A DNA stretch of 64,000 nucleotides from assembly GCA_041490525.1 (NCBI GenBank), contig JBGPTH010000014.1, positions 1,983-65,982 of the forward strand. Reading direction: 5' to 3'. Positions 3,834-61,948 of this stretch are shown here, piece by piece (the stretch's first letter is position 1; each line of letters starts with the position of its first letter). The translations under genes and the position numbers were made by a program. The stretch comes from Nitrospiria bacterium (GTDB lineage Bacteria > Nitrospirota > Nitrospiria > Nitrospirales > NS-4). The notes under the pieces are model-generated. The model saw only the letters and a program-made list of their open reading frames with translations. It made no database searches and was not told the origin of the DNA.

Positions 3834-4712
3834 TTATCGAAAGATCACCCCGCTCCAGATTCCCGCAAGAATGAGTGCGCCCACCCAGGCGTGCTGCCTG
3901 AACAGCGTGAAGGCCGCGGCGGGAGAGACCCCGCGCTTGACCCGCCAGCTCTGGTAGGCGAACAGTGCGGAGGCCAGAACAAGCGCCAGATAGAACGGCA
4001 GGGTGAGGCGGGCGGCCATCCCGACGAGGGTCAGGAAGAGGACCATTACGGCCAGGGCCCCCAACACAGCCAGCCACGTCCATCGCCCGAAGAGGAGGGC
4101 GGCGGACAGGACGCCGATGCGCACGTCATCCTCGCGGTCTTGGAGCGCGTAGATCGTGTCATACCCGATGGCCCAGAAGACGGTCGCCAGGAAGAGGCCG
4201 ATGGCCGGCCAGCCGATCTCGTTGCGCACGGCGGCCCAGGCCATGATGGCGCCCCATCCGAACGCGATGCCGAGCACGGCTTGCGGGCAGGCCATCACTC
4301 GCTTGGCCAGCGGGTAGAGGACGGCCAGGAGGACGGCGACGGGCGCGAGCGCGATGGTGAGCGGATTGAGCAGGGCGACTAACCCCGCCGCCACGAGGAT
4401 CAGCCCGACGAACACCCCCAGGGCGGTCCTTGGCGGTATGCGGCCCGAAGCCACGGGGCGGTTCTGGGTGCGCCGGACGCGGCGGTCCAGGTCGCGGTCC
4501 CCGAGATCGTTGATGGTGACCCCCGCGCTTCGCATGACGAAGGCCCCGGCGATAAAGATGGTCGTGAGCGAAAGAGGCGGATGCCCGTCGCCCGCCAACA
4601 CCAGTGCCCAGAGCGTCGGGAACACTAACAACAGGGATCCGGTCTGATTGCGAAGCCGGATCAGATCGGCCAGGGAGGACCAGGAGACCGGGCCGTCCGG
4701 GGGGTGCGCCAT
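3834..4712 (-). CDS. ubiA: 4-hydroxybenzoate polyprenyltransferase
   Basis: RSAGVTINDLGDRDLDRRV.RT.NRP.ASG and YDTIYALQDREDD motifs; only the C-terminal 293 codons of the 3834..6410 ORF. Confidence 0.92.
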   Translation of the reverse strand: MAHPPDGPVSWSSLADLIRLRNQTGSLLLVFPTLWALVLAGDGHPPLSLTTIFIAGAFVMRSAGVTINDLGDRDLDRRVRRTQNRPVASGRIPPRTALGVFVGLILVAAGLVALLNPLTIALAPVAVLLAVLYPLAKRVMACPQAVLGIAFGWGAIMAWAAVRNEIGWPAIGLFLATVFWAIGYDTIYALQDREDDVRIGVLSAALLFGRWTWLAVLGALAVMVLFLTLVGMAARLTLPFYLALVLASALFAYQSWRVKRGVSPAAAFTLFRQHAWVGALILAGIWSGVIFR

Positions 4713-13283: not shown

Positions 13284-15506
13284 TCACTTGGCTTTCAAGA
13301 CGTAGACGCCGTCCCAGTCCGGCGACGGCGGGGCGGCGAGGTACTCTTCCGCCCGATGCAGATACACCTTGGACGGACCATCGGCGGGGTCCAGGGCCAG
13401 GGCGTTCGCGAAGTGCTCTTTCGCCTTCGCGAAATCGCGTCGTTTGTAGGCGGTCAATCCTTCGAGGTAGGCCTCCTTCATCTTCCGTTTCACGGGGTCC
13501 AGTTGGCCCTTGCGGGCGAGCAATTCGTAGACCACCACCGGTTCCAACTTGCCCTTCACCCGCATGACGTCCACTTCTCGAGCCTCGATGTCGCGCTGGG
13601 CCAGCTCGTAGGTGCGCGGGCCCAGCAGGATGAAGGTCTCGTAGAACTTGTTGGCCCCCTCCAGGCGGGAGGCCAGATTGACGCTGTCGCCCATCACCGT
13701 GTACTCCATCCGCGCCTGCGACCCCATGTTGCCCACCACCAACGGGCCGGAGTTGATGCCGATGCGCGCTGTGATCTCCGGATGCCCCTGGGCCTTCCAT
13801 TTCTCACGCAGGTGAACGAGATCCGCCTGACTATCCAGCGCGGCGTAGCACGCCAGCGTCGCGTGGTCGGGTTCGCCGCGCGGCGCCCCAAAGATGGCCA
13901 TGATGCCGTCCCCCAGGTACTTGTTGACGTTCCCACGATGCTTGAGGATGATGTCGGTCATGGCCGACAGATACTCGTTCAACAGCTCCACGAGGGCCTC
14001 CGGCTGGAGCTTCTCCGAGATGGTGGTGAAGCCGGCCACGTCCGAGAAGAAGACCGTCAATTCCTTCTTTTCGCCCCCTAGCTTGATGCCTTCGGGATTG
14101 CGCATGATCTCATCCACGACCTCGGCCGCCATGTACCGGTCGAACACGGTCCGTAGGAGGCGGCGCTGGCGGCCCTCCGTGAGGTATTCCACGGTGGCGG
14201 CCACTCCGAAGGTCATGGCCAGTGCCCCCTCGGGAAAGGCCAGCTCAAGCCAGACGGCGTGGGACATGAAGGCGTGCACGGCGAGCAGGTAGTAGGCGAC
14301 CGCGCCCCCAAGGATGAGGCCGAATTTGAGGGCCTGGCGCTGGAGCATCATGAACCCCCACGAAGTGCTGAGGCAGAGCGCGAGGGTCGTCAGCGCGAAG
14401 GCCCAGTAGGGAGCCGGCTGCATGGCCCGGCTGCGAAGAATGTTGTCGAGGGCGGTCATGTGGATCAGGACCCCGGGGGTGAACGGGGAGAGCGGCGTGA
14501 CGCGAAGATCGTAGGTGCCGGCGGCGGTGGTGGCCACGAAGACGATCCTGTCTCGAAACAGGGCCGGATCGAGGAGGGGCCGCTCCCCTTTTTGCATTGC
14601 CGCGTATGACCGAAGAACCGCCCCGATGGAATACGCACGGTACGTCTTCTGGTCCAGCGGCCCGTGCCAATCGATCACCATGTCCCCCTGGGCGGAGAGA
14701 GGAACCGTCGCCGACCCGAGCTGAAGGGCCCGGGGGCCGATCGTCGCGCCTCCGGCCCCCAGCACGTATCGGGCCACGGACGTCGCGAGCTGCATCTGCA
14801 TCTGGGCGCGATTGGAGGTGTCCGCCAGCAGGGGCAGGCGGCGCGTGGTGCCGTCGGAATCGGGAGACAGATTGATGAATCCCAACCCGCGTGCGGCCTC
14901 GGCCAGGGGAGGAATGGGCAGCTTGACGCCCTGGTAAGGCTTGGGATGATCTGGGGGCCTGTCCCCCCCGACGGGCATGGTGGCTTTGGCCAAAAGGTGG
15001 GGCCGGGGGGCCGGAGTCGGGGCGGACTGGAGCAGGTACGGGAGAAACACGTTGCCCGCAGCGCGGACTTCCTCCGCAAAGGCGGCATCGAATTCCTCGG
15101 CCCCCTCATCCGGCTCGAGGAATAGGATGTCGAAAACGATGGCCCTGGCGCCGGCCTCCCGAAGATAGTGGACCACATAGCCATGGCGGTCCCTGGGCCA
15201 GGGCCAGCGGCCGAAGGTCTCCAGGCTGGCTTCATCGACCGCCACGAGGAGGATGTTCTTGTCGGCCAGGGCCGGGTCGGCGTACTGGTGGTAACGGTGA
15301 TCGAGCGTCTTGAGCTCGGCGATGGTGAGCAGGCCGGACTGGTGGAGGGCCACGGTCAGGAGGAACACGGCAACTCCCACGGCGGTTGCGGTGAGGCGTT
15401 TCTTGAGGGTCTTGGAGAGTTCCACGGAGAATCCCACGGGAGCGAGGTCAGTATGGCGTATGGGATTCCATTTTTCAAGCAGCTTCCTTGACACCTCGTA
15501 AGGCAT
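13284..15506 (-). CDS. CHASE2-domain class III adenylate cyclase with C-terminal TPR-like segment (true start may be GTG at ~15425)
   Basis: VAVDE.SL..FGRWPWPR, DILF.EP, PGV.IH; three TMs; FSDVAGFT, KYLGDG, YTVMGDSVNLASRLE (Lys/Thr suggest ATP specificity). Confidence 0.9.
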   Translation of the reverse strand: MPYEVSRKLLEKWNPIRHTDLAPVGFSVELSKTLKKRLTATAVGVAVFLLTVALHQSGLLTIAELKTLDHRYHQYADPALADKNILLVAVDEASLETFGRWPWPRDRHGYVVHYLREAGARAIVFDILFLEPDEGAEEFDAAFAEEVRAAGNVFLPYLLQSAPTPAPRPHLLAKATMPVGGDRPPDHPKPYQGVKLPIPPLAEAARGLGFINLSPDSDGTTRRLPLLADTSNRAQMQMQLATSVARYVLGAGGATIGPRALQLGSATVPLSAQGDMVIDWHGPLDQKTYRAYSIGAVLRSYAAMQKGERPLLDPALFRDRIVFVATTAAGTYDLRVTPLSPFTPGVLIHMTALDNILRSRAMQPAPYWAFALTTLALCLSTSWGFMMLQRQALKFGLILGGAVAYYLLAVHAFMSHAVWLELAFPEGALAMTFGVAATVEYLTEGRQRRLLRTVFDRYMAAEVVDEIMRNPEGIKLGGEKKELTVFFSDVAGFTTISEKLQPEALVELLNEYLSAMTDIILKHRGNVNKYLGDGIMAIFGAPRGEPDHATLACYAALDSQADLVHLREKWKAQGHPEITARIGINSGPLVVGNMGSQARMEYTVMGDSVNLASRLEGANKFYETFILLGPRTYELAQRDIEAREVDVMRVKGKLEPVVVYELLARKGQLDPVKRKMKEAYLEGLTAYKRRDFAKAKEHFANALALDPADGPSKVYLHRAEEYLAAPPSPDWDGVYVLKAK

Positions 15507-37427: not shown

Positions 37428-37460
37428 GCTAGCGCTTACGCTTGGTTTTCGCTTTCGGTT
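37428..37460 (-). pseudogene. Relic copy of the lpxD 3' end (PKAKTKRKR-stop)
   Basis: 30/33 nt identical to 38759..38791. Confidence 0.75.
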
Positions 37461-38523: not shown

Positions 38524-38759
38524 CGCACACTCCTTCCATTAGGAAGTTTCGCGTCTGAAGTCCTAAATCGTGGAGTGTGCAAACTCCGCGCCGTTGCAAA
38601 GGGCGTGTAACTCTATGGAACGAAAGGGCCTGGTGTCAAGAACAGCCGGCCTATGACGGGGGACAGGTGTGTCATAAACCCTATTAGTGAAGGCTTTTTA
38701 ACGCTTCCAACGCTTCGATGTTGCTTAGGGTTTTGGTTTGCTGCGGAGGGCAGGAGGAG

Positions 38760-53521: not shown

Positions 53522-56500
53522 ATGAGCGGCGTGTCCCCAAGGCCTCTGGAGCTTGAGCAACTGTTGCGCCGGCGCATCGCGATTCTCGACGGCGCGATGG
53601 GCACGATGATCCAGGCGCGTCAGCTCGATGAGGCGGGCTTTCGGGGGCGGCAATTCGCCGACCACCCCACCGATCTGAAAGGGTGCAACGACCTCCTCTG
53701 CCTGACCCAGCCGGACATCATTGAGGAAATCCATCGCCAATATCTCGAATCGGGGGCGGACATCATCGAGACGAACACGTTCAACTCCACGGCGATCTCG
53801 ATGGCCGATTACAAGCTGGAGCCCGTGGTCTATGACCTGAACGTGGCCGGCGCCCAGGCCGCCCGTCGTGCGGTCGAGGCCGTCATGGCGAAGGACCCGT
53901 CCCGCCCGCGGTTCGTGGCCGGGGCGATGGGGCCCACGAACCGCACGGCGTCGATGTCGCCGGATGTCAACAACCCCGCCTTTCGGGCGGTCAGCTACGA
54001 CCAACTGGTCGCCGCCTATACCGAGCAGGTCCGGGGACTGCTGGACGGCGGGGTCGATCTCTTGTTGGCCGAGACGGTCTTTGACACGCTGAACCTCAAG
54101 GCCGCCCTCTTTGCCATCGATCAGTATTTTGAGACCCAGGGACGGCGCGTGCCCGTGATGGTCTCGGTCACCATCACGGACCGGAGCGGCCGGACGCTTT
54201 CCGGCCAGACCGTGGAGGCGTTCTGGAATTCGATCTCCCACATGCCGTTGCTGAGCGTCGGGATCAACTGCGCGCTCGGGGCGAAGCAGATGCGCCCCTA
54301 TATCGGGGAGCTGGCCTCGCTCGCGCCGGTGTACCTCAGTTGCTATCCCAATGCCGGCCTGCCCAACGCCTTCGGAGGGTTCGATGAAACCCCGGAGATC
54401 ATGGCCGCCGACCTCCTGGACTTCGCGTCGAACGGCTGGCTGAACATCGTCGGCGGATGCTGCGGGACGACCCCGGCCCATATCCGTGCCATCGCCGACG
54501 CCGTGCGCGACTGTCCCCCGCGAGTGCCGGTCACCCCCGAACCGTTTACCCGCCTGAGCGGGCTGGAACCGTTGACGATCCGCCCGGAGACCAACTTCGT
54601 CAACATCGGGGAACGCACGAACGTCACCGGGTCCCCCCAGTTCGCCAAACTGGTCCTGAACGCCGAGTACGAGGCCGCCCTGTCTATCGCGCGCCAACAA
54701 GTGGAGGGCGGTGCACAGATGATCGACGTGAACATGGACGAGGGCATGCTGGATTCGGCGGCGGCGATGGAGCAATTCCTGAAGTTGATCGCCTCCGAGC
54801 CGGACATCTCCCGGGTGCCGGTCGTGATCGACAGCTCCAACTGGGCGGTGATCGAGGCGGGGCTCAAGTGCGTCCAGGGCAAGCCGGTCGTGAACTCGAT
54901 CAGCCTGAAGGAAGGGGAGGAGGCGTTCACACGCCGCGCCCGGTTGATCCGGCGGTACGGCGCGGCGGTCGTGGTCATGGCCTTCGATGAAGCGGGGCAG
55001 GCCGACCGGGTGGAACGCAAGGTCGAGATCTGCACGCGGGCGTACCGGATCTTGACCGAGGAGGTGGGGGTTCCACCACAGGACATTATTTTCGATCCCA
55101 ACGTGCTGACCGTCGCCACGGGCATCGAGGAGCACAACACGTACGCGGTGGATTTCATCGAGGCCGTCCGCCGGATCAAGGCCACGCTGCCTCACTGCAA
55201 GGTCAGCGGGGGCATCAGCAATATTTCCTTCTCCTTTCGCGGCAACCACGCGGTCCGCGAGGCGATGCACTCCGCCTTTCTCTATCATGCGATCCGGGCC
55301 GGGCTGGACATGGGCATCGTCAACGCCGGTCAGCTCGCCGTGTACGAAGAGATCCCCAAAGACCTGCTGGAGCTGGTCGAAGACGTCCTGTTGAACCGGC
55401 GCCCGGACGCCACCGAGCGGCTGGTGGCCTTTGCCGAGACCGTCAGGCAGCAGGGCAGAGTTGCCGTGCAGGAGGATGCCTGGCGGGCGGGCACGGTCGA
55501 GGAGCGTCTGTCGCACGCCCTGGTCAAAGGCGTGGTGGAGCACATCGAGGCGGACGTGGAGGAGGCCCGCCGGAAGTACGCCAAGCCTCTGGAGGTGATC
55601 GAAGGCCCCTTGATGGCGGGCATGAACATCGTGGGGGACCTGTTCGGCTCCGGCAAGATGTTTTTGCCCCAGGTCGTCAAGAGCGCGCGCGTGATGAAAA
55701 AGGCGGTGGCTTATCTGTTGCCCTTCATGGAGGAAGAAAAAAAGACCTCCGGCATCAGCCGGGCCCAGGGGAAAATCCTGATGGCCACCGTGAAGGGGGA
55801 CGTGCACGACATCGGGAAGAACATCGTCGGGGTGGTGCTCGGGTGCAACAACTATGAGGTGATCGATCTGGGGGTGATGGTCCCCTGCGACAAGATCCTC
55901 GCGACCGCCCGCGACCGCCAGGTGGACCTGATCGGGCTCAGTGGCCTGATCACCCCCTCGCTGGAGGAGATGGTGCACGTGGCGCGGGAAATGGCGCGGG
56001 AGGGAGTGCAGGTCCCGCTTCTGATCGGCGGGGCCACCACGAGCAAGGCCCATACGGCCGTGAAGATCGCGCCCGCGTACGCGCAGCCGGTGGTCCACGT
56101 GTTGGACGCCTCGAGGGCGGTGGGGGTGGTCAGCCGCCTCCTCAGTCCGGACCAGAAGGCGCCGTTCGCCGAACAAAACCGGCTTGACCAGGAGCGAGTC
56201 CGGCACGCGCACAAGGAGCGCGGGGAGAAGGTCTTGCTCACGTTGGCCGAGGCGCGTGAGCGGAGAACGCCGATCGAGTGGCGAGCCGCCGACATCCCGA
56301 AACCGGCCTTCACCGGCATTCGGGTCCTGGAATCGTGTCCGCTGGGTGAGATTGTCCCGTTCATTGACTGGTCGCCGTTCTTTCACACGTGGGAGCTGCG
56401 CGGGCGCTATCCCAAGATCCTGGAGGACGCGACCGTCGGCCCGAAGGCCAAGGAGCTGTTCGACGACGCACAGGCGCTGCTCAACGAGATCGTGCGCGGC

Positions 56501-57217
56501 AAGCTGCTCACGGCGCGCGGCGTGTACGGTTTCTTCCCGGCGAACAGCGTCGGCGACGACATCGAAGTGTACCGCGACGAGTCGCGCACGTCGGTGCGGA
56601 TGGTGTTCCATACACTCCGCCAGCAGACGCCGAAGCCGGAGGGGCAGTTCAATCAGGCGCTGGCCGATTTCATCGCGCCGAAGTCCACGGGACTTCCGGA
56701 CTACCTCGGCGCGTTCGCGGTCACGAGCGGCATCGGGCTTGAGAAGATCTGCGCGCGCTTCGAGAAGGAGCACGACGACTACAACTCGATCATGGCAAAG
56801 GCGCTGGCGGACCGGCTGGCGGAGGCCTTTGCCGAGCTGTTGCACAAGAAGGCGCGGGAGGAATGGGGCTACGGCGCGGCGGAGGGGCTCGGCCACGAAG
56901 ACCTGATCCGGGAACGCTACCGGGGCATTCGCCCGGCCCCCGGGTACCCGGCCTGTCCGGACCACACCGAGAAGCGCACCTTCTTCGATCTGCTACACGC
57001 GGAGAAGAACGCGGGCATCACCTTGACTGAAACCTTCGCGATGCTTCCGGCCAGCTCGGTCAGTGGATTGTATTTCGCGCATCCCGACGCGAAGTACTTT
57101 GCGGTGGGCAAGCTCGCCCGAGACCAGGTCCTGGACTATGCGCGGCGTAAACAAATGGACGTGGGCGCGATCGAGCGCTGGCTCGCCCCCAATCTGAATT
57201 ACGAGCCGGAGCGGTAA
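53522..57217 (+). CDS. metH: Cobalamin-dependent methionine synthase
   Basis: [62 protein letters not shown]. Confidence 0.98.
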
Positions 57218-57256
57218 GGTGTCTGGCGCCCGGAGGTGTCTTGCTCGATTATCTGA

Positions 57257-57301
57257 GGTGTCTGGCTCAATTTTTCTTCCGAGAAAAATGTGCCTGACAC
57301 C
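57257..57301. repeat. REP-like imperfect palindrome E1
   Basis: GGTGTCTGGCTCAATTTTTCT-TCCG-AGAAAAATGTGCCTGACACC; GGTGTCTGGC also at 57218, directly after the metH stop. Confidence 0.7.
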
Positions 57302-57373
57302 GGGTTTGCTATGCGTCCATCTAGCCACGGGGGATCCGAGGCATCACCTATGAGACACCGCGACGAGGGGAAA

Positions 57374-57406
57374 GGACTAAACAAGGTAACCTGTCCCCTT
57401 TTTCTG
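57374..57406. repeat. REP-like half element E2, a direct repeat of the right arm of E3
   Basis: GGACTAAACAAGGTAACCTGTCCCCTTTTTCTG vs GGACCAAACAAAGTAGCCTGTCCTCTTTTCTG (57784..57815). Confidence 0.65.
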
Positions 57407-57454
57407 GCCGCCAAAATGCCTGCTGAAGCCTAAGCACAGCAAGTCGAGTGATCA

Positions 57455-57724
57455 ATGATGTGGAAAACACTTGGAGAAGCAGCATTCTATTTTGGCTTTG
57501 GGAGCCTGCTGCTTGGTTTTCGTAAGGCCATGACCCCTTCTCGAGAATCTGAGGATAATACCCGACAAATCTTCTGGTGGACCATCAAAGTGTCGCGATG
57601 GGAGCAACGCTATAACTACTACCTTGCAAACTTCATCATCCTGGCGACGGCCAGCGTCGCATTCTTCTTTGGCCTGGTCACACTCTATGCCCTGATTACG
57701 GGCCAGCCGTCGCCTATACGCTAA
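57455..57724 (+). CDS. Small two-TM hypothetical protein
   Basis: Two hydrophobic segments; lies between E2 and E3. Confidence 0.6.
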   Translation: MMWKTLGEAAFYFGFGSLLLGFRKAMTPSRESEDNTRQIFWWTIKVSRWEQRYNYYLANFIILATASVAFFFGLVTLYALITGQPSPIR

Positions 57725-57745
57725 GAATTAAGTGAGGAGTGCGTT

Positions 57746-57815
57746 CAGAAAAAGGGAAAGGCTACCTTCTTTACGGCGTGAGAGGACCAAACAAAGTAGC
57801 CTGTCCTCTTTTCTG
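57746..57815. repeat. REP-like palindrome E3
   Basis: Arms CAGAAAAAGGGAAAGGCTAC / GTAGCCTGTCCTCTTTTCTG, 17/20 complementary. Confidence 0.7.
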
Positions 57816-57826
57816 CTGCCGGGTAA

Positions 57827-58552
57827 ATGATGCCAGATAAAGCAACGCTTGGTGCGAGCGGAGGAGCACCTGAAGATCGGACGGCCATCCTCCGCCGAAG
57901 ACCGGCTCGGACCAGGATACGAATTCTCAACGTTCGGAAAATTTTCCCTCCGGATGACGAGCTTGCAACAATCATCGCTCGCTTATGCATTCTGAGGGAA
58001 GATCTATCTCTTGAAATCCATGGCATTGTCTTTGATCCAATGGAGTTCCTAGACAGGAATTCGATCCCATGGCGGCACAACTACTTCTTCAGGAATTCGG
58101 TCAGGACGCTGATGGAGATCAGGGGAGCGCTACAAACCTTGAACTGCAATGTGGAATTCAAGCGGATCCTTAAAAGGTGTGAACCTAAAGCGCAAGAGTA
58201 TTTCAAAGAATTTTGTAAGCGCATTAACGAGGCCCATGGACTTATTGAGGAAGTACGAAACAGCATTGGGGCACACGTCAAGCACAATGCTGTTGGACGG
58301 GGTCTGAAGTCGGTTCCCTTCGAAAGAACTGGAGTCTGGGAAGAGTCGCAGGATTTTATCCATACACATCATCGTTTTTCGAATGAATTGTTTATTGCCA
58401 TCTTGCAGGGAGGGGATCGTCCTTATGATGTTCCAGACAAGGACATAACGGAAGTCCTAGAAATGACAGGGACCATGGCTCGCCTGACAGAGGCCATTCC
58501 GCTCATTGATATGCTATTTAGGCTTTACCTTCATGAAAGGCATCTGCTCTAA
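57827..58552 (+). CDS. Hypothetical protein with HEPN-like R-x5-H motif
   Basis: EVRNSIGAH in a helical protein; foreign composition. Confidence 0.6.
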   Translation: MMPDKATLGASGGAPEDRTAILRRRPARTRIRILNVRKIFPPDDELATIIARLCILREDLSLEIHGIVFDPMEFLDRNSIPWRHNYFFRNSVRTLMEIRGALQTLNCNVEFKRILKRCEPKAQEYFKEFCKRINEAHGLIEEVRNSIGAHVKHNAVGRGLKSVPFERTGVWEESQDFIHTHHRFSNELFIAILQGGDRPYDVPDKDITEVLEMTGTMARLTEAIPLIDMLFRLYLHERHLL

Positions 58553-58570
58553 TCCGTACAAAGAAGGTCA

Positions 58571-58617
58571 GGGCAGGTCTTGCAATCATCCATCGTCGTA
58601 ATGCAAGACGTCACTCC
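58571..58617. repeat. REP-like palindrome E4
   Basis: GGGCAGGTCTTGCAAT...ATGCAAGACGTCACTCC with perfect GTCTTGCA/TGCAAGAC stem. Confidence 0.65.
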
Positions 58618-58674
58618 GAGAAGTTTCCATGGTTCCATCTTCTTTGCCTACAACGGTAGCTTCCGAGGCACTGC

Positions 58675-59652
58675 ATGATCATCGCTATTGATGAATCAGG
58701 GTCTTTTGCACCGGACGCAAAGGAGCGACACTTCTTTTCTGCGATTCACCTCCGTCAGCGGAGGACGTTCTACAAACTGAAAGAGCGACAATTTACAGAC
58801 TGGGAGATGTCGTTGCCTCGAACTCTGAAGAACGCAAAGGGAGAAATTAAAAGTTCTAGTTTGTCCGATGATCAACTATCGGAGTTTGCGCGCGTTGTTC
58901 TTTGCGGCCAACACTATGTGGGTGTGACACCATTTGCGATTAATCCAACCGATAATCCTAAATCGGTCGTTGAAAAGCATCGCGCAGTCGCCTTGGTTGG
59001 TATTCAGGAGGGGGTAAAAGGCTATACCGCTCAGGGAAAGAAAAAATTAGCAGCTGTTTATCAGGACTTTGGGAATTGGCTACAAAGACTAAGCTATTCG
59101 CAGTTCCTTAAGATTGTATTACTCGGTTCGTGCCTGTCCTCGGCGATCGTAAACACAATGGGGCATGCGATCTCTGGAGGGCATGATGAAGAGCTGATGC
59201 GAATGGAATTTCTTATCGACCGGGATTTCATAAAAGAACCGAGACACCAATTTTTTTGGCGTAACATTTGGCGTAATCAGCTTTACCACGCCAGTAAATT
59301 AAATCCTTTCCCGATGTTAGAGAAGTGGAAGGAGAAGGGCCATCCCTTTTTGACGAAATATATGCGGGAGGGCCATCTGGATTTCAGTGATCTTTTCTCT
59401 AATCACCTCAGGTTCGTTCAATCGCATGCGTATTTCGAGATACGGATAGCCGACGCCGTAAATACCATCCTTTTTCGCTTTTTCAATCAACGGCGGTGTG
59501 CCCTCGCATACAAGTATCTTCGCAGCTGCATTCTGTATGATGGAAAGGTCCATCAGATACTCTTGAGAGACTTTGATCTTGATGCCTGGCGCTATGACCC
59601 CGACGCAAATCCTTGGGGGAAGTTTCCGAGTTCTTCAGAGAAGGTCATGTAA
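58675..59652 (+). CDS. DUF3800-like (RNase H-fold) protein
   Basis: N-terminal IAIDESG, EIK, FLIDR, C-terminal IRIAD motifs. Confidence 0.7.
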   Translation: MIIAIDESGSFAPDAKERHFFSAIHLRQRRTFYKLKERQFTDWEMSLPRTLKNAKGEIKSSSLSDDQLSEFARVVLCGQHYVGVTPFAINPTDNPKSVVEKHRAVALVGIQEGVKGYTAQGKKKLAAVYQDFGNWLQRLSYSQFLKIVLLGSCLSSAIVNTMGHAISGGHDEELMRMEFLIDRDFIKEPRHQFFWRNIWRNQLYHASKLNPFPMLEKWKEKGHPFLTKYMREGHLDFSDLFSNHLRFVQSHAYFEIRIADAVNTILFRFFNQRRCALAYKYLRSCILYDGKVHQILLRDFDLDAWRYDPDANPWGKFPSSSEKVM

Positions 59653-59711
59653 GGGAATTGTGAAATTAATCTGGGTTGGAGTTGACTGTTCAGCCCGCCT
59701 AAAACAAACGT

Positions 59712-59812
59712 GGCGTCAGTCACCGTTTTCCGATTCGCAAGCAAACAGATAATGAAAACGGTGACAGACCCCGACCTATGACTCCTCGGAGAAAACGGTA
59801 ACAGACACCGTT
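59712..59812. repeat. REP-like palindrome E5 plus tandem copy of its right arm
   Basis: GTCACCGTTTTC (59719..59730) / GAAAACGGTGAC (59754..59765) perfect 12 bp; GAAAACGGTAACAGACACCG repeated at ~59791; related half site GGTGTCAGTCACCGT at 60183..60197. Confidence 0.7.
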
Positions 59813-59817
59813 CCTCG

Positions 59818-59869
59818 CTACGGCTGCTTGTCGGTCTTCAGTTGAACGACCTGCTGCGGGTAGGGCATC
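59818..59869 (-). pseudogene. Relic copy of the mscS 3' end (MPYPQQVVQLKTDKQP-stop)
   Basis: 59826..59869 matches 60907..60950 at 43/44 nt. Confidence 0.85.
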
Positions 59870-59878
59870 CGGCGGAGG

Positions 59879-60109
59879 TCATTTTAGCTTGGAGCGGGCG
59901 TCGTCAAAAACCTGAGCAGCGGGTTTGGGAGCGAGTGTCCCTCGTCGGTAGTCCTGATAGCGGCGCTCGGCCTCTTGCAGCCATAGCTCTTCCGCCTCCA
60001 CATCCTCACCGATGTCCAGGCTGGCGATCAGACTGTGCGCGAGATGGGCGCGGTCAGCCGCGGGGAGTTGTTTGGCCTCCTGTTCAAGCTGTGATAATGC
60101 TTTTCCCAT
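59879..60109 (-). CDS. Addiction-module antitoxin component (TIGR02574-like), cognate toxin missing
   Basis: GAGGAGA SD; A..LP..DRA.LA..L..SL.....W..EAERR...Y..G. Confidence 0.8.
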   Translation of the reverse strand: MGKALSQLEQEAKQLPAADRAHLAHSLIASLDIGEDVEAEELWLQEAERRYQDYRRGTLAPKPAAQVFDDARSKLK

Positions 60110-60244
60110 GGTCTCTCCTCTATGGCTGGCGACATTCTGACTGTACTCGTCCAGCCATGAATTTTCAATATCCATTGAAACTGGTGTCAGTCACCGTCGG
60201 ATTTTTTGCTTGACTTGTGAAGTAGGAATTCATACCATGATGGT

Positions 60245-60475
60245 ATGAAAACCGTGGTTTCGGAAAAGGGGCAGGTGACGATCCCCAAGCCGATCCGTGA
60301 TCGCCTGGGCATTCGGGCGGGCCAAGCCTTGGATTTCCGTGCGGAGCAGGGGCAGTTGGTGGCGACCAAGATCACGCCTCAGGACGCAGTCGAGAGCGTG
60401 TACGGGATACTTAAGCTTGGACGGCCGACGGATGCGGTGATGAAAACGTTGCGCGGGACGGCCGGCGCGAGGTGA
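60245..60475 (+). CDS. AbrB/MazE-fold antitoxin
   Basis: VSEKGQVTIPK.IR..LGI..G..L.F. Confidence 0.9.
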   Translation: MKTVVSEKGQVTIPKPIRDRLGIRAGQALDFRAEQGQLVATKITPQDAVESVYGILKLGRPTDAVMKTLRGTAGAR

Positions 60476-60882
60476 TCACGGCAGTCGACACGAGCGTCCT
60501 GCTCGACATTTTCGGCGCCGATCCTGCCTTCGGGAGTCGCTCCAAAGCGGCTCTGCGTTCCTGTATCAGCGAAGGCGGCCTGATTGCCTGCGAGGTCGTA
60601 TGGGCGGAGGTGGCAGGCCTCTTTCCAACATCCGAGGCCGCCCAAGACGCCATGAGGCGTTTAAGCGTGGAATTCAGCGCTATCGAAATCGAAACGGCGC
60701 TGGCAGCCGGCGCGTCCTGGAAGAAGTATCGGGATCGGGGTGGACGGCGGAATCGGGTGGCGGCTGATTTCTTGATCGGCGCGCATGCGTTGTTGCAAGC
60801 CAATCGGCTGTTGACGCGGGATCGTGGATTCTATCGGGCCTATTTTTCCTCCCTGAAGGTGGTCGACTCTTCAAAAGCCTGA
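60472..60882 (+). CDS. vapC: PIN-domain (VapC) toxin
   Basis: AVDTSVL.D, VVWAEV, ADF.IGAHA, LLTRD; GTGA overlap with the antitoxin stop. Confidence 0.9.
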   Translation: MITAVDTSVLLDIFGADPAFGSRSKAALRSCISEGGLIACEVVWAEVAGLFPTSEAAQDAMRRLSVEFSAIEIETALAAGASWKKYRDRGGRRNRVAADFLIGAHALLQANRLLTRDRGFYRAYFSSLKVVDSSKA

Positions 60883-60889
60883 AGAGGCT

Positions 60890-61948
60890 CTATATCTGTT
60901 CGGTCGGCTTGTCGGTCTTCAGTTGAACGACTTGCTGCGGGTAGGGCATCTCGATCTGTTCGTCCTTGAACCGTTTCAGAATGCGCTTGCGGAGCTCGTG
61001 CTGGACCAGTCCCTGGTCCTCGAATTCCCGGACATGGACGCCCAGGGTGAAGTCCAGCGACGACGCGCCGAAGCCGGGAATGAGCCTGACGGCGGGCGCC
61101 GGCTCCGCCAAAAGCCCCGGCACCTGGCCCACGGCTTTCTGGGCCTCCTCGAGCAGCACCCGTTCGACGCGGTCCGGATCGGTCCCGTACGACACGCTGA
61201 CGGTGAGGGACACGGCCATGCGCGGGTCGGGGAGGAAGTAGTTGGTCAGGATGGACTGCGTCAGCTTGTTGTTGGGGATGATCACCAGATTGTTGGGAAG
61301 CATGCGGATCCGCGTCGTGCGCCACCCGATGTCCACGATGTAGCCCTCCTGGCCCGTTTCGAGCTTCACGAAGTCGCCGATCCGCACCGGCTTCTCGATC
61401 AAGAGATGAATGCCGGCGAAGAAGTTGGACAGGGTGTCCTGCAGGGCCAGCGCGACCGCCAGCCCGCCCACGCCCAAGGCGGTGAGAATCGGCGCGATCG
61501 AGACCCCCAGGCCGCTCAGGAGCACCAGCCCGCCGACGATCCAGATCGTCACCTTGATGATCGTGATGGAAAGCCCGGTGGCCGGGAGCGCCAGATTGTT
61601 CTTCCGGAGCGTGTCCCACAGGGTTGACGCCGCCACGTTCGCCAGCGCGGCCGTCGCCGAGACCACCAACAGCGCGTACACGATGCTGAGCGCAGCGGCC
61701 CCGGGGCGCGGCGGCAGGGGCGCGAGATCGAGCGCGACGTACAGGCCGATCAGCACGCACCAGACGGCCGAGGGAAGGCGGAGGCTCCGCACGAGGACAT
61801 CGTCGAGCCGGGTCGGCGTGCGCGCGGCCCAGCGGTAGAGCGCGCGGAGCGCGAGGTGACGAAAGCCGAGCGCCAAGCCGGTGACGACGGCGAAGGCGGC
61901 CAGGCCCTTGAGGGCGGTGATGACTTCGGCGGATAAGCTCTTCATCAT
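60890..61948 (-). CDS. mscS: Small-conductance mechanosensitive channel family protein
   Basis: GVGGLAVALALQDTLSNFFAGI, P.RIGD, IG.R.T.IR, IPN. Confidence 0.92.
   Translation of the reverse strand: MMKSLSAEVITALKGLAAFAVVTGLALGFRHLALRALYRWAARTPTRLDDVLVRSLRLPSAVWCVLIGLYVALDLAPLPPRPGAAALSIVYALLVVSATAALANVAASTLWDTLRKNNLALPATGLSITIIKVTIWIVGGLVLLSGLGVSIAPILTALGVGGLAVALALQDTLSNFFAGIHLLIEKPVRIGDFVKLETGQEGYIVDIGWRTTRIRMLPNNLVIIPNNKLTQSILTNYFLPDPRMAVSLTVSVSYGTDPDRVERVLLEEAQKAVGQVPGLLAEPAPAVRLIPGFGASSLDFTLGVHVREFEDQGLVQHELRKRILKRFKDEQIEMPYPQQVVQLKTDKPTEQI

Follow-up and report, generated by a model that had tools for sequence, protein, structure and literature searches.

Why does the 3' end of mscS occur twice in a Nitrospira-like chromosome, and what became of the toxin that should accompany the antitoxin lying between the two copies? 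The window, as we call the whole 64-kb stretch of DNA that was analysed, belongs to a 62-contig metagenome-assembled genome (MAG) from a strain-mixed community, and the locus lies between mscS and metH (Table 1). An earlier note had described a 44-nt repeat of the mscS end, the distal copy closing in its own stop codon, and an antitoxin gene whose stop overlaps an ATG from which the sequence passes into this relic. It proposed that one piece carrying the antitoxin and vapBC had arrived with a new mscS allele and cut off the toxin gene, leaving a recent recombination scar.

Table 1. Features of the mscS-metH locus (positions in the window)
Feature	Position	Strand	Basis or remark
Functional mscS, 352 aa	61948..60890	-	Pfam MS_channel_1st/2nd/3rd
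Recombination breakpoint inside mscS	61488..61528		Mismatch counts against haplotype L036
Repeat, proximal copy	60907..60950	-	Part of functional mscS 3' end
vapBC block, insertion of 705 nt	60198..60902		Flank alignments to L036
vapC, PIN-domain toxin, 136 aa	60472..60882	+	PF01850, 3.2e-10
vapB, AbrB/MazE/SpoVT-type antitoxin, 76 aa	60245..60475	+	PF04014, 4.2e-9
REP-like hairpin, right half with flank (ACGGTGACTGACACCA-GTTTCAA)	60174..60197	-	23/24 alignment to L036 1967-1990
Orphan antitoxin, 76 aa	59879..60109	-	PF09720, Pfam E = 3e-11, full profile length
parE start remnant and junction	59870..59882	-	ATGACC common to intact parE; next 7 nt (TCCGCCG) of uncertain origin
mscS 3'-end relic, 52 nt including TAG stop	59818..59869	-	Encodes (E)MPYPQQVVQLKTDKQP*
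Native REP-like hairpin, enlarged loop	59700..59814		84.5% identity over 110 nt to L036 1873-1982
Low-GC (48%) cargo, ORFs of 89, 241 and 325 aa	57218..59699	+	Between relic/REP and metH; composition
metH, conserved far border of hotspot	53522..57217	+	Pfam; 82% nt identity to G004

The two copies of the repeat (59826-59869 and 60907-60950) are identical at 43 of 44 positions and are spaced 1,081 nt apart, so that the unit between them carries vapBC and the PF09720 antitoxin. The pair is unique in the window, where 100 shuffles gave no match, and in the 2.8-Mb genome, and its longest shared exact run is 25 nt, shorter than the usual assembly k-mers. The relic ends in KTDKQP* with its own TAG (59820-59818), the functional gene in KTDKPTEQI*. 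Over all 52 nt the relic is identical to the 3' end of a natural, co-circulating mscS allele, P0004/L037, and the body of that gene has 96% identity to the window mscS; the relic and the functional end derive from different alleles. Lying downstream of the cargo and agreeing with a natural allele, as expected of a displaced gene end, the relic is followed by the native hairpin, which in an unoccupied relative, haplotype L036, comes directly after the mscS stop. The junction reads ATGACC TCCGCCG and then G-ATGCCC of the relic, which is out of frame with that ATG and is today non-coding. Similarity to mscS begins abruptly at 59869 and similarity to parE ends after ATGACC, with at most 1 nt of possible microhomology, as in a non-homologous join. 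The repeat and the passage from the overlapping ATG into the relic, 14 nt later, are real, as the earlier note had described them.

PF09720 is a family of antitoxins that pair with ParE/RelE toxins, and the antitoxin of the window belongs to it. Its open reading frame could be extended to 60175, while a ribosome-binding site (GAGGAGA) and the homologues favour the 76-residue form. Its TGA, ending at 59879, overlaps an ATG in the motif ATGA (59882-59879). The closest homologues with known neighbours come from a genome of the sister genus (G004) and three metagenome contigs (L040, L042 and P0122); they are 84-87% identical in amino acids, and all four are followed by an intact ParE (PF05016) at the same ATGA overlap, so the intact pair expected in relatives does exist. 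At the nucleotide level the identity is 87% to G004 over 59877-60168 and 86% to L040 and L042. Intact parE homologues start with AAATGACCGACGTTGTC..., of which only ATGACC, followed by 7 further nt, is left downstream of the window antitoxin. A window-wide similarity search found nothing of parE beyond this stump, and the genome holds no cognate ParE, only a paralogue elsewhere that is 39-41% identical. Since the relatives keep ParE at the ATGA and the window has no remainder of it, the toxin was lost at the relic junction, leaving the antitoxin an orphan; on the removal of the toxin by a recombination scar the earlier note was right. In a family-wide search the antitoxin was present only in its own genome and in G004. 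Neither the 52-nt relic nor the 14-codon ORF at the ATGA should be annotated as a gene.

The vapBC pair looks intact, with an AbrB/MazE-type antitoxin, a PIN toxin whose GTG start overlaps the vapB stop by 4 nt (GTGA, 60472-60475), and the acidic catalytic residues D6, E41, D99 and D117 present by eye. It is a separate insertion. At the position of the 705-nt block, L036 has 49 nt, consisting of the stop codon, the left REP arm and the loop, and the hairpin half that flanks the block in the window is the remainder of the hairpin that L036 has behind its mscS stop. Both block borders carry CCGAC. The block is absent in G004, L040 and L042, where the region upstream of the antitoxin abuts the stop of the preceding gene. 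By alignment of these flanks, vapBC is an insertion of its own, which replaced the stop codon of mscS and one half of a REP hairpin. The claim that antitoxin and vapBC arrived as one piece does not hold, as the sister genus has the antitoxin-ParE pair beside mscS/metH and vapBC is a separate 705-nt insertion by the same comparison. Attempts to read the border palindromes as attC sites of an integron were rejected: they belong to a family of REP-like hairpins with about 17 loci on many contigs of the genome, and by eye they have no R''/R' ends of the GTTRRRY type.

The mscS gene itself is a full-length member of the MscS family with all three Pfam MS_channel domains. Natural close alleles have 349 aa and end in KTDK followed by QP, PT or LT, and full-length alleles in relatives are 96-99% identical to that of the window, whose exact protein sequence has no entry on record; genomic contexts were taken from near-identical cluster members. 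Homology of the mscS end to L036 stops at 60903, and the functional gene is a PT-type allele in which the vapBC insertion overwrote the natural stop and added EQI*. In its present form it is just three residues longer. The PTEQI* tail is found on at least two mscS bodies, since the body of P0006 is the same as that of P0019, which ends in QP*. Compared with L036, the window has 1 mismatch in 963 nt (62450-61488) and 23 in 581 nt (61487-60907; Fisher p = 2e-9), being almost identical upstream and 4% divergent downstream, which marks a sharp breakpoint within mscS. That two mscS alleles meet here, as the earlier proposal implied, is borne out by the match of the relic to P0004/L037, the PT-type end of the functional copy and this breakpoint.

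The scar is not a one-off assembly artefact, because five longer contigs, which differ in sample and assembler (JGI, NCBI MAG, Logan), show the 5-kb arrangement with both repeats and the junction at 99.98% identity. The junction is also present in at least six shorter contigs, which brings the identical scar to at least 11 independent assemblies, and every assembly that carries the window antitoxin or VapC has it. The diverged haplotype L039 shares this exact junction, and its antitoxin body has 1 difference in about 230 nt. Its relic differs from that of the window at 5 of 51 positions and is the same as the mscS end of L036; a methyltransferase gene comes next, and a search with this gene for a longer L039 contig returned only the same 1.4-kb contig. 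The scar need not be as recent as the earlier note had it, being in every assembly with this antitoxin or VapC and being shared, with another relic allele and another downstream gene, by L039. Between mscS and metH, this Nitrospira-like population has a hotspot whose content varies from strain to strain. At the position of the low-GC cargo, which has only a weak Pfam match to DUF3800, L036 and L039 carry different cargo. Further displaced mscS ends are found at the locus: L036 carries a second relic, and in G004 an mscS pseudogene adjoins the antitoxin. The idea that the second L036 relic starts at the same base as that of the window was discarded, its likeness to a divergent mscS type reaching further upstream. 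A second gene-end relic in the window, of lpxD (30/33), has no sequence likeness to the mscS repeat.

The scar probably arose by recombination that was homologous on one side and illegitimate on the other (homology-facilitated illegitimate recombination, HFIR, or C-terminal displacement), followed by homologous shuffling; the route of recombination and the sequence of its steps are what we infer from the comparisons above, and either variant could have been the donor. The ancestral layout, kept in the sister genus, would have been mscS, a short spacer or REP hairpin, the PF09720 antitoxin, ParE and metH. A single exchange would then have joined two variants of the locus, with homology on one side, in mscS or on the metH side, and a non-homologous join on the other, where base 13-14 of parE was fused to base -52 of a KTDKQP*-type mscS. 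Its product would be a functional mscS, the cargo (vapBC and antitoxin), a 13-nt parE stump and the last 52 nt of the displaced mscS with the native hairpin. vapBC would have entered separately, as a small illegitimate insertion overwriting the mscS stop codon. An antitoxin kept without its toxin would be harmless, so that the scar could become fixed. Later homologous recombination up to the homology border may have moved the block between mscS backgrounds or swapped the sequence beyond the relic, which would explain the haplotype with the same junction and a different relic allele. The anchor-side crossover expected of such an event may be the breakpoint against L036, though this could stem from a later, unrelated exchange, a point that counts against the account. 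So do the search for a haplotype with the same antitoxin (at least 99%) or VapC and an intact parE, which met only scarred contigs, the loose definition of where parE-derived sequence ends and where TCCGCCG comes from, and the possible microhomology of only 1 nt where the two sequences join. For the one junction to stand on two relic alleles, moreover, a second recombination must have converted all 44 nt of the relic up to the homology border.

An unlikely alternative is that the 1,081-bp unit is a small integrase-less cassette that inserts site-specifically at a core within the mscS 3' end and is mobilised by a recombinase whose gene lies elsewhere, with the 44-nt copies as attL and attR. The direct repeats are sharply bordered on both sides, two haplotypes have an identical junction with relics matching two different resident alleles, and the PTEQI* tail occurs on two mscS backgrounds, one of which is also known with its natural QP* end. 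However, while the flanking repeat of an integrase-borne island is there in the 44-nt copies, neither an ORF nor a Pfam match for a tyrosine or serine recombinase is found between mscS and metH, and the left end is a beheaded parE, not expected as the natural terminus of a mobile element. The lpxD relic shares no motif with the mscS repeat, and the second L036 relic begins at another base and derives from a divergent mscS. When metagenomes were scanned for the 19-mer core, 11 loci turned up, each of them either a chance match or a distant mscS gene; such genes share the 19-mer simply because of the conserved MPYPQQ motif and codon bias. Equally doubtful is the wider reading that the 44-nt mscS end is a portable recombination site through which the block moves between strains into the mscS 3' end, by a trans-acting recombinase or with the relic as second homology arm. 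If it were true, gene-end relics would be a general vehicle for the spread of islets in this lineage, with the lpxD relic as a second case.

It is also improbable, and slightly more so, that a linear 1,081-bp donor fragment (mscS base -60 to parE base 14) was circularised and integrated by a Campbell-type single RecA crossover in the 44 nt, duplicating the homology on both sides. The structure is exactly homology-cargo-homology with 44 nt as the homology, and incoming linear DNA has been documented to circularise and then undergo a single crossover (PMC3240628). Yet a homology of 44 nt comes close to the minimum that a RecA crossover needs, the single mismatch would confine the exchange to the first 17 nt, and the breakpoint 540 nt further into mscS is left unexplained. 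A tandem duplication from mscS base -60 to parE base 14 within one chromosome, followed by deletion of most of the second copy, would yield exactly the join of parE stump and mscS; we consider it very improbable. It requires two events, and the relic tail (CAGCCGTAG) is unlike that of the functional copy and equals another natural allele, including the stop, before running into the native hairpin, an allele end and hairpin that a deletion ending at random would not reproduce. An assembly chimera of two strain variants, linked by a shared 44-mer, is hardly credible. The genome is a MAG of many contigs from mixed strains and several short contigs break within the repeat, but both the k-mers of the junction and the complete 5-kb order are found again in the assemblies counted above, including Logan contigs built with short k-mers; the copies share too short an exact run, and path switching in an assembly graph cannot make the join of parE stump and relic.

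The mscS scar is real but ordinary, an event of a known kind, and reveals no new mechanism. In an uncultured lineage of nitrite-oxidiser-like bacteria it provides a clean natural case of small toxin-antitoxin cargo entering the chromosome without mobile-element machinery, and of the way in which an antitoxin comes to be an orphan. An unoccupied allele, several mscS backgrounds that carry the occupied form and a second haplotype with the same junction indicate that the scar has been passed around by homologous recombination, and it can be used as a marker of strain structure.

With type II ParDE-like modules that combine a PF09720 antitoxin (TIGR02574-type) with ParE/RelE, the locus shares the antitoxin family, its 76 aa, its upstream position and the 4-nt ATGA overlap, but the toxin gene is absent past its first 6-13 nt. 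Like integrative islands that target gene 3' ends (attL/attR), it has gene-end direct repeats flanking cargo and a slightly altered functional gene tail; unlike them, it has no integrase, is only 1 kb long and ends on one side in a truncated toxin gene. HFIR is known in Acinetobacter, S. pneumoniae, P. stutzeri and E. coli (PMC3240628; references cited in PMC5361080), and both HFIR and displacement with retention of orphan genes have been described (PMC3240628, PMC5361080). The window has what may be the homologous anchor on one side (the mscS allele switch with its breakpoint), the abrupt non-homologous join opposite and foreign cargo trapped beside the anchor gene; it differs from experimental HFIR in being read from natural population sequences and in the 7 extra nt of uncertain origin at the junction. 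C-terminal displacement with orphan arrays is found at Rhs/CDI and Vibrio T6SS effector-immunity loci (PMC5361080). There, as is proposed for the window, an incoming allele with cargo displaces the resident gene end, which is left downstream as a relic, and events recur at one locus, as the second L036 relic and the G004 pseudogene suggest here. The anchor in the window is a housekeeping channel gene instead of a toxin gene, the relic is only 52 nt long, and the orphan is a type II antitoxin with no functional link to the anchor. In both cases the protective partner survives and the toxic one is lost, immunity at the Rhs/CDI and T6SS loci and the antitoxin in the window.

The PF09720 antitoxin downstream of mscS is an orphan, because its relatives keep an overlapping ParE gene, the window lacks any remainder of one and the genome has only a distant paralogue. 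The antitoxin TGA overlaps an ATG (ATGA, 59882-59879); the overlap is followed by ATGACC TCCGCCG and then by G-ATGCCCTACCCGCAGCAGGTCGTTCAACTGAAGACCGACAAGC-AGCCGTAG, which repeats how mscS ends at its 3' side. In a sister-genus genome (G004, locus L025) the gene order is metH, a 277-aa ORF, ParE, antitoxin and an mscS pseudogene. Its ParE (PF05016, 96 aa) starts at the same ATGA (AAATGACCGACGTTGTC...), and its antitoxin has 87% nucleotide identity to window positions 59877-60168. An overlapping ParE is likewise found in three metagenome contigs (L040, L042 and the contig of the homologue P0122), whose antitoxins are 84% identical. No further ParE similarity occurs in the 64-kb window, and the sole ParE match of its own genome is a 39-41% identical paralogue on another contig. 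The earlier note's view that a toxin gene was truncated at the ATGA is thus borne out by the intact ParE in these four relatives; homologous antitoxins were checked for want of an overlapping toxin ORF, and they do have ParE. In L040 and L041 (~380-543 in both), the antitoxin-ParE pair and the same 34-nt upstream spacer lie behind an ABC-transporter ATPase gene, whereas in G004 this spacer (L025 3890-3926) sits behind the mscS pseudogene; homology between the two arrangements ends exactly where the upstream gene does, at its stop codon.

Features of the mscS locus and related hairpins
Feature	Position	Strand	Remarks
mscS	61948..60890	minus	352 aa, three MS_channel Pfam domains
vapB	60245-60475	plus	PF04014
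vapC	60472-60882	plus	PIN
Antitoxin ('putative addiction module component')	60109..59879	minus	PF09720; most likely extent, 76 aa, RBS GAGGAGA; ORF open up to 60175
mscS 3'-end relic	59869..59818	minus	copy of mscS 3' end, own stop
REP-like hairpin	59700-59814		beyond relic
Low-GC cargo	57218-59699		2.5 kb between relic/hairpin and metH, the next gene; 48% GC vs genome 62%
REP-like hairpins, other examples in the same genome	C33:26977-27022; C20:27217-27273; C6:175-220

The relic and the hairpin behind it are a genuine mscS end, displaced together with the flank native to it, since the relic matches the P0004 allele (locus L037) at 52/52 positions of its 3' end and, in the unoccupied haplotype L036, the hairpin follows the mscS stop. 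The close natural alleles encode 349 aa with tails KTDKQP* (P0004, P0019), KTDKPT* (P0003) or KTDQLT* (P0005), and the remainder of the P0004 gene is 96% identical to the window mscS. In L036, which carries the P0003 allele (98%), the hairpin directly after the stop is the one behind the window relic (84.5% over 110 nt) and belongs to a genome-wide REP-like family. This family, GGGGTCTGTCACCGTTTCA...TGAAACGGTGACTGACGCC, occupies ~17 loci, often close to the end of a contig; some members stand in tandem with GGGGTCTGGCTCCGG repeats. The functional mscS represents another allele type: its PT runs on into EQI*, because homology to L036 ends at 60903, its natural stop codon having been overwritten; different mscS alleles were therefore involved, as proposed earlier. 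The 44-nt core of the repeat (59826-59869 vs 60907-60950, 43/44 identical) is the sole such pair in the window (chance expectation 0) and in the 2.8-Mb genome.

The vapBC module, whose two genes overlap by 4 nt, is convergent to mscS and lies 7 nt past its stop. A 705-nt block (60198-60902), with CCGAC at both borders, stands in place of 49 nt of L036 comprising the stop codon, left hairpin arm and loop, while the right hairpin half and flank persist next to the antitoxin, on its upstream side (60174-60197). The vapBC block is an insertion separate from the antitoxin. The ~1.08-kb piece described earlier, with antitoxin and vapBC, is not a single unit, as the vapBC block is missing from G004, L040 and L042, where the region upstream of the antitoxin borders directly on the stop codon of another gene, the preceding one.

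A breakpoint, a sign of homologous exchange, lies within mscS. From archease into mscS (62450-61488) the window and L036 differ at 1 position in 963 nt; in contrast, the remaining 581 nt of mscS have 23 mismatches (p = 2e-9). The tail PTEQI* is also found on another mscS body, P0006, which equals P0019 (ending QP*) apart from the tail and an internal gap. A second haplotype, contig L039, shares the junction ATGACCTCCGCCGG|ATGCCC in identical form and carries the same antitoxin, with 1 difference in about 230 nt of body. The L039 relic differs at 5/51 positions and is identical to the L036 mscS end (PT*), and a UbiE-type methyltransferase gene follows in place of the low-GC cargo. Since the identical junction adjoins another relic allele and neighbour, it probably arose once and was later set into different flanks. 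Shared by several assemblies and by the diverged L039, the junction is not private, and its supposed recency is not demonstrable. A 1-nt deletion near the 3' end of the L039 antitoxin (300-335; tail DDAPPS* vs DDARSKLK*) hints at decay of the orphan, or could be a sequencing error in a thin, low-coverage contig. Within the window cargo are ORFs of 89, 241 and 325 aa of no solid family, the last with a weak DUF3800 match and the 241-aa ORF with a 34% paralogue on contig C8; in other haplotypes the short conserved elements are the same and enclose different cargo.

Further mscS ends have been displaced at the same locus. L036 has, at 2539-2722, a second REP hairpin, GATCGAGATGCCCTACCCGCAGCAGG and a divergent MscS-type tail (MPYPQQDIHIKDAP...), a second relic (2611 onward) resembling distant mscS genes such as that in L043. 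In G004 (contig C29) the mscS pseudogene beside antitoxin-ParE (3927-4609) has an internal deletion and one TGA, and a full-length mscS (14419-15498) lies 10 kb away, beyond an osmoprotection cluster (otsB, otsA, treT, solute-binding protein, Na+/H+ exchanger); the arrangement resembles a further mscS displacement. The window itself has a duplicated lpxD 3' end (37428-37460 vs 38759-38791; 33 nt, 30/33, ~1.3 kb apart), with no likeness to the mscS repeat by sequence comparison. The displacement process recurs in the lineage, given the second L036 relic, the G004 pseudogene and the lpxD relic.

The scar is probably the product of one exchange between two locus variants that combined a homologous side with an illegitimate one. 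Misassembly of the repeat region is extremely unlikely. Although the source is a MAG in 62 contigs (Nitrospirales/Nitrospira-like organism), five longer contigs of independent origin (JGI 3300053057, NCBI GCA_041498675.1, Logan SRR35959925, SRR29604879 and SRR29604901) show the same 5-kb order, junction and both repeat copies included, at 99.98% identity, and the junction recurs in contigs of SRR35969162, SRR35962390, SRR29605738, SRR35968830 and JGI 3300053058; the JGI 3300053056 contig has mscS-vapCB only and ends short of it. The longest exact match between the two repeat copies is 25 bases, and the parE stump/relic join cannot result from path switching in an assembly graph. Tandem duplication followed by deletion is very improbable, leaving unaccounted for a relic tail that is another natural allele.

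A circularised fragment integrated by a single crossover would give the same final structure, but the crossover would have to fall within at most 44 nt, which makes it a doubtful route. The identical junction on two alleles would be neatly accounted for by a site-specific cassette with the 44-mer as an att-like site; such a cassette is nevertheless unlikely, having no recombinase and a beheaded toxin gene at one end, while the lpxD and mscS repeats share no motif and the presence of a 19-mer of the repeat in distant mscS genes as well has a trivial cause.

In the favoured single exchange, the illegitimate side would have joined parE base 13-14 to mscS base -52. Either the incoming piece was anchored in mscS and consisted of an mscS 3' half, vapBC, the antitoxin and the parE stump, or it was anchored in metH, consisted of an mscS end, the hairpin and the low-GC cargo, and cut the resident parE. 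The two orientations fit equally well, the second being no less likely because the sister genus has antitoxin-ParE beside metH; the mscS-anchored arrival assumed in the earlier note is compatible, but its direction is not certain. Of that account the scar that cut the toxin and the different alleles stand, while the age, the 1.08-kb unity and the certainty of direction do not. Later homologous recombination up to the homology border may have produced the L039 and P0006 forms.

At present mscS is presumably intact with three additional residues, and the vapBC module looks complete. The antitoxin of the window haplotype, with promoter-like sites and an intact ORF, seems to lack a partner; most likely it is just a neutral leftover, and at best it would guard against ParE modules of its own type that come in. 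The relic and a 14-codon ORF at the ATGA are presumably non-coding leftovers, and through the 44-nt repeats the 1,081-bp unit could, on rare occasions, be lost.

The mscS scar is a fresh instance of a known phenomenon. The favoured exchange, with one homologous and one illegitimate side, would have the pattern of homology-facilitated illegitimate recombination (PMC3240628), and corresponds to the 'displacement with retained orphan' described at Rhs and T6SS loci (PMC5361080).
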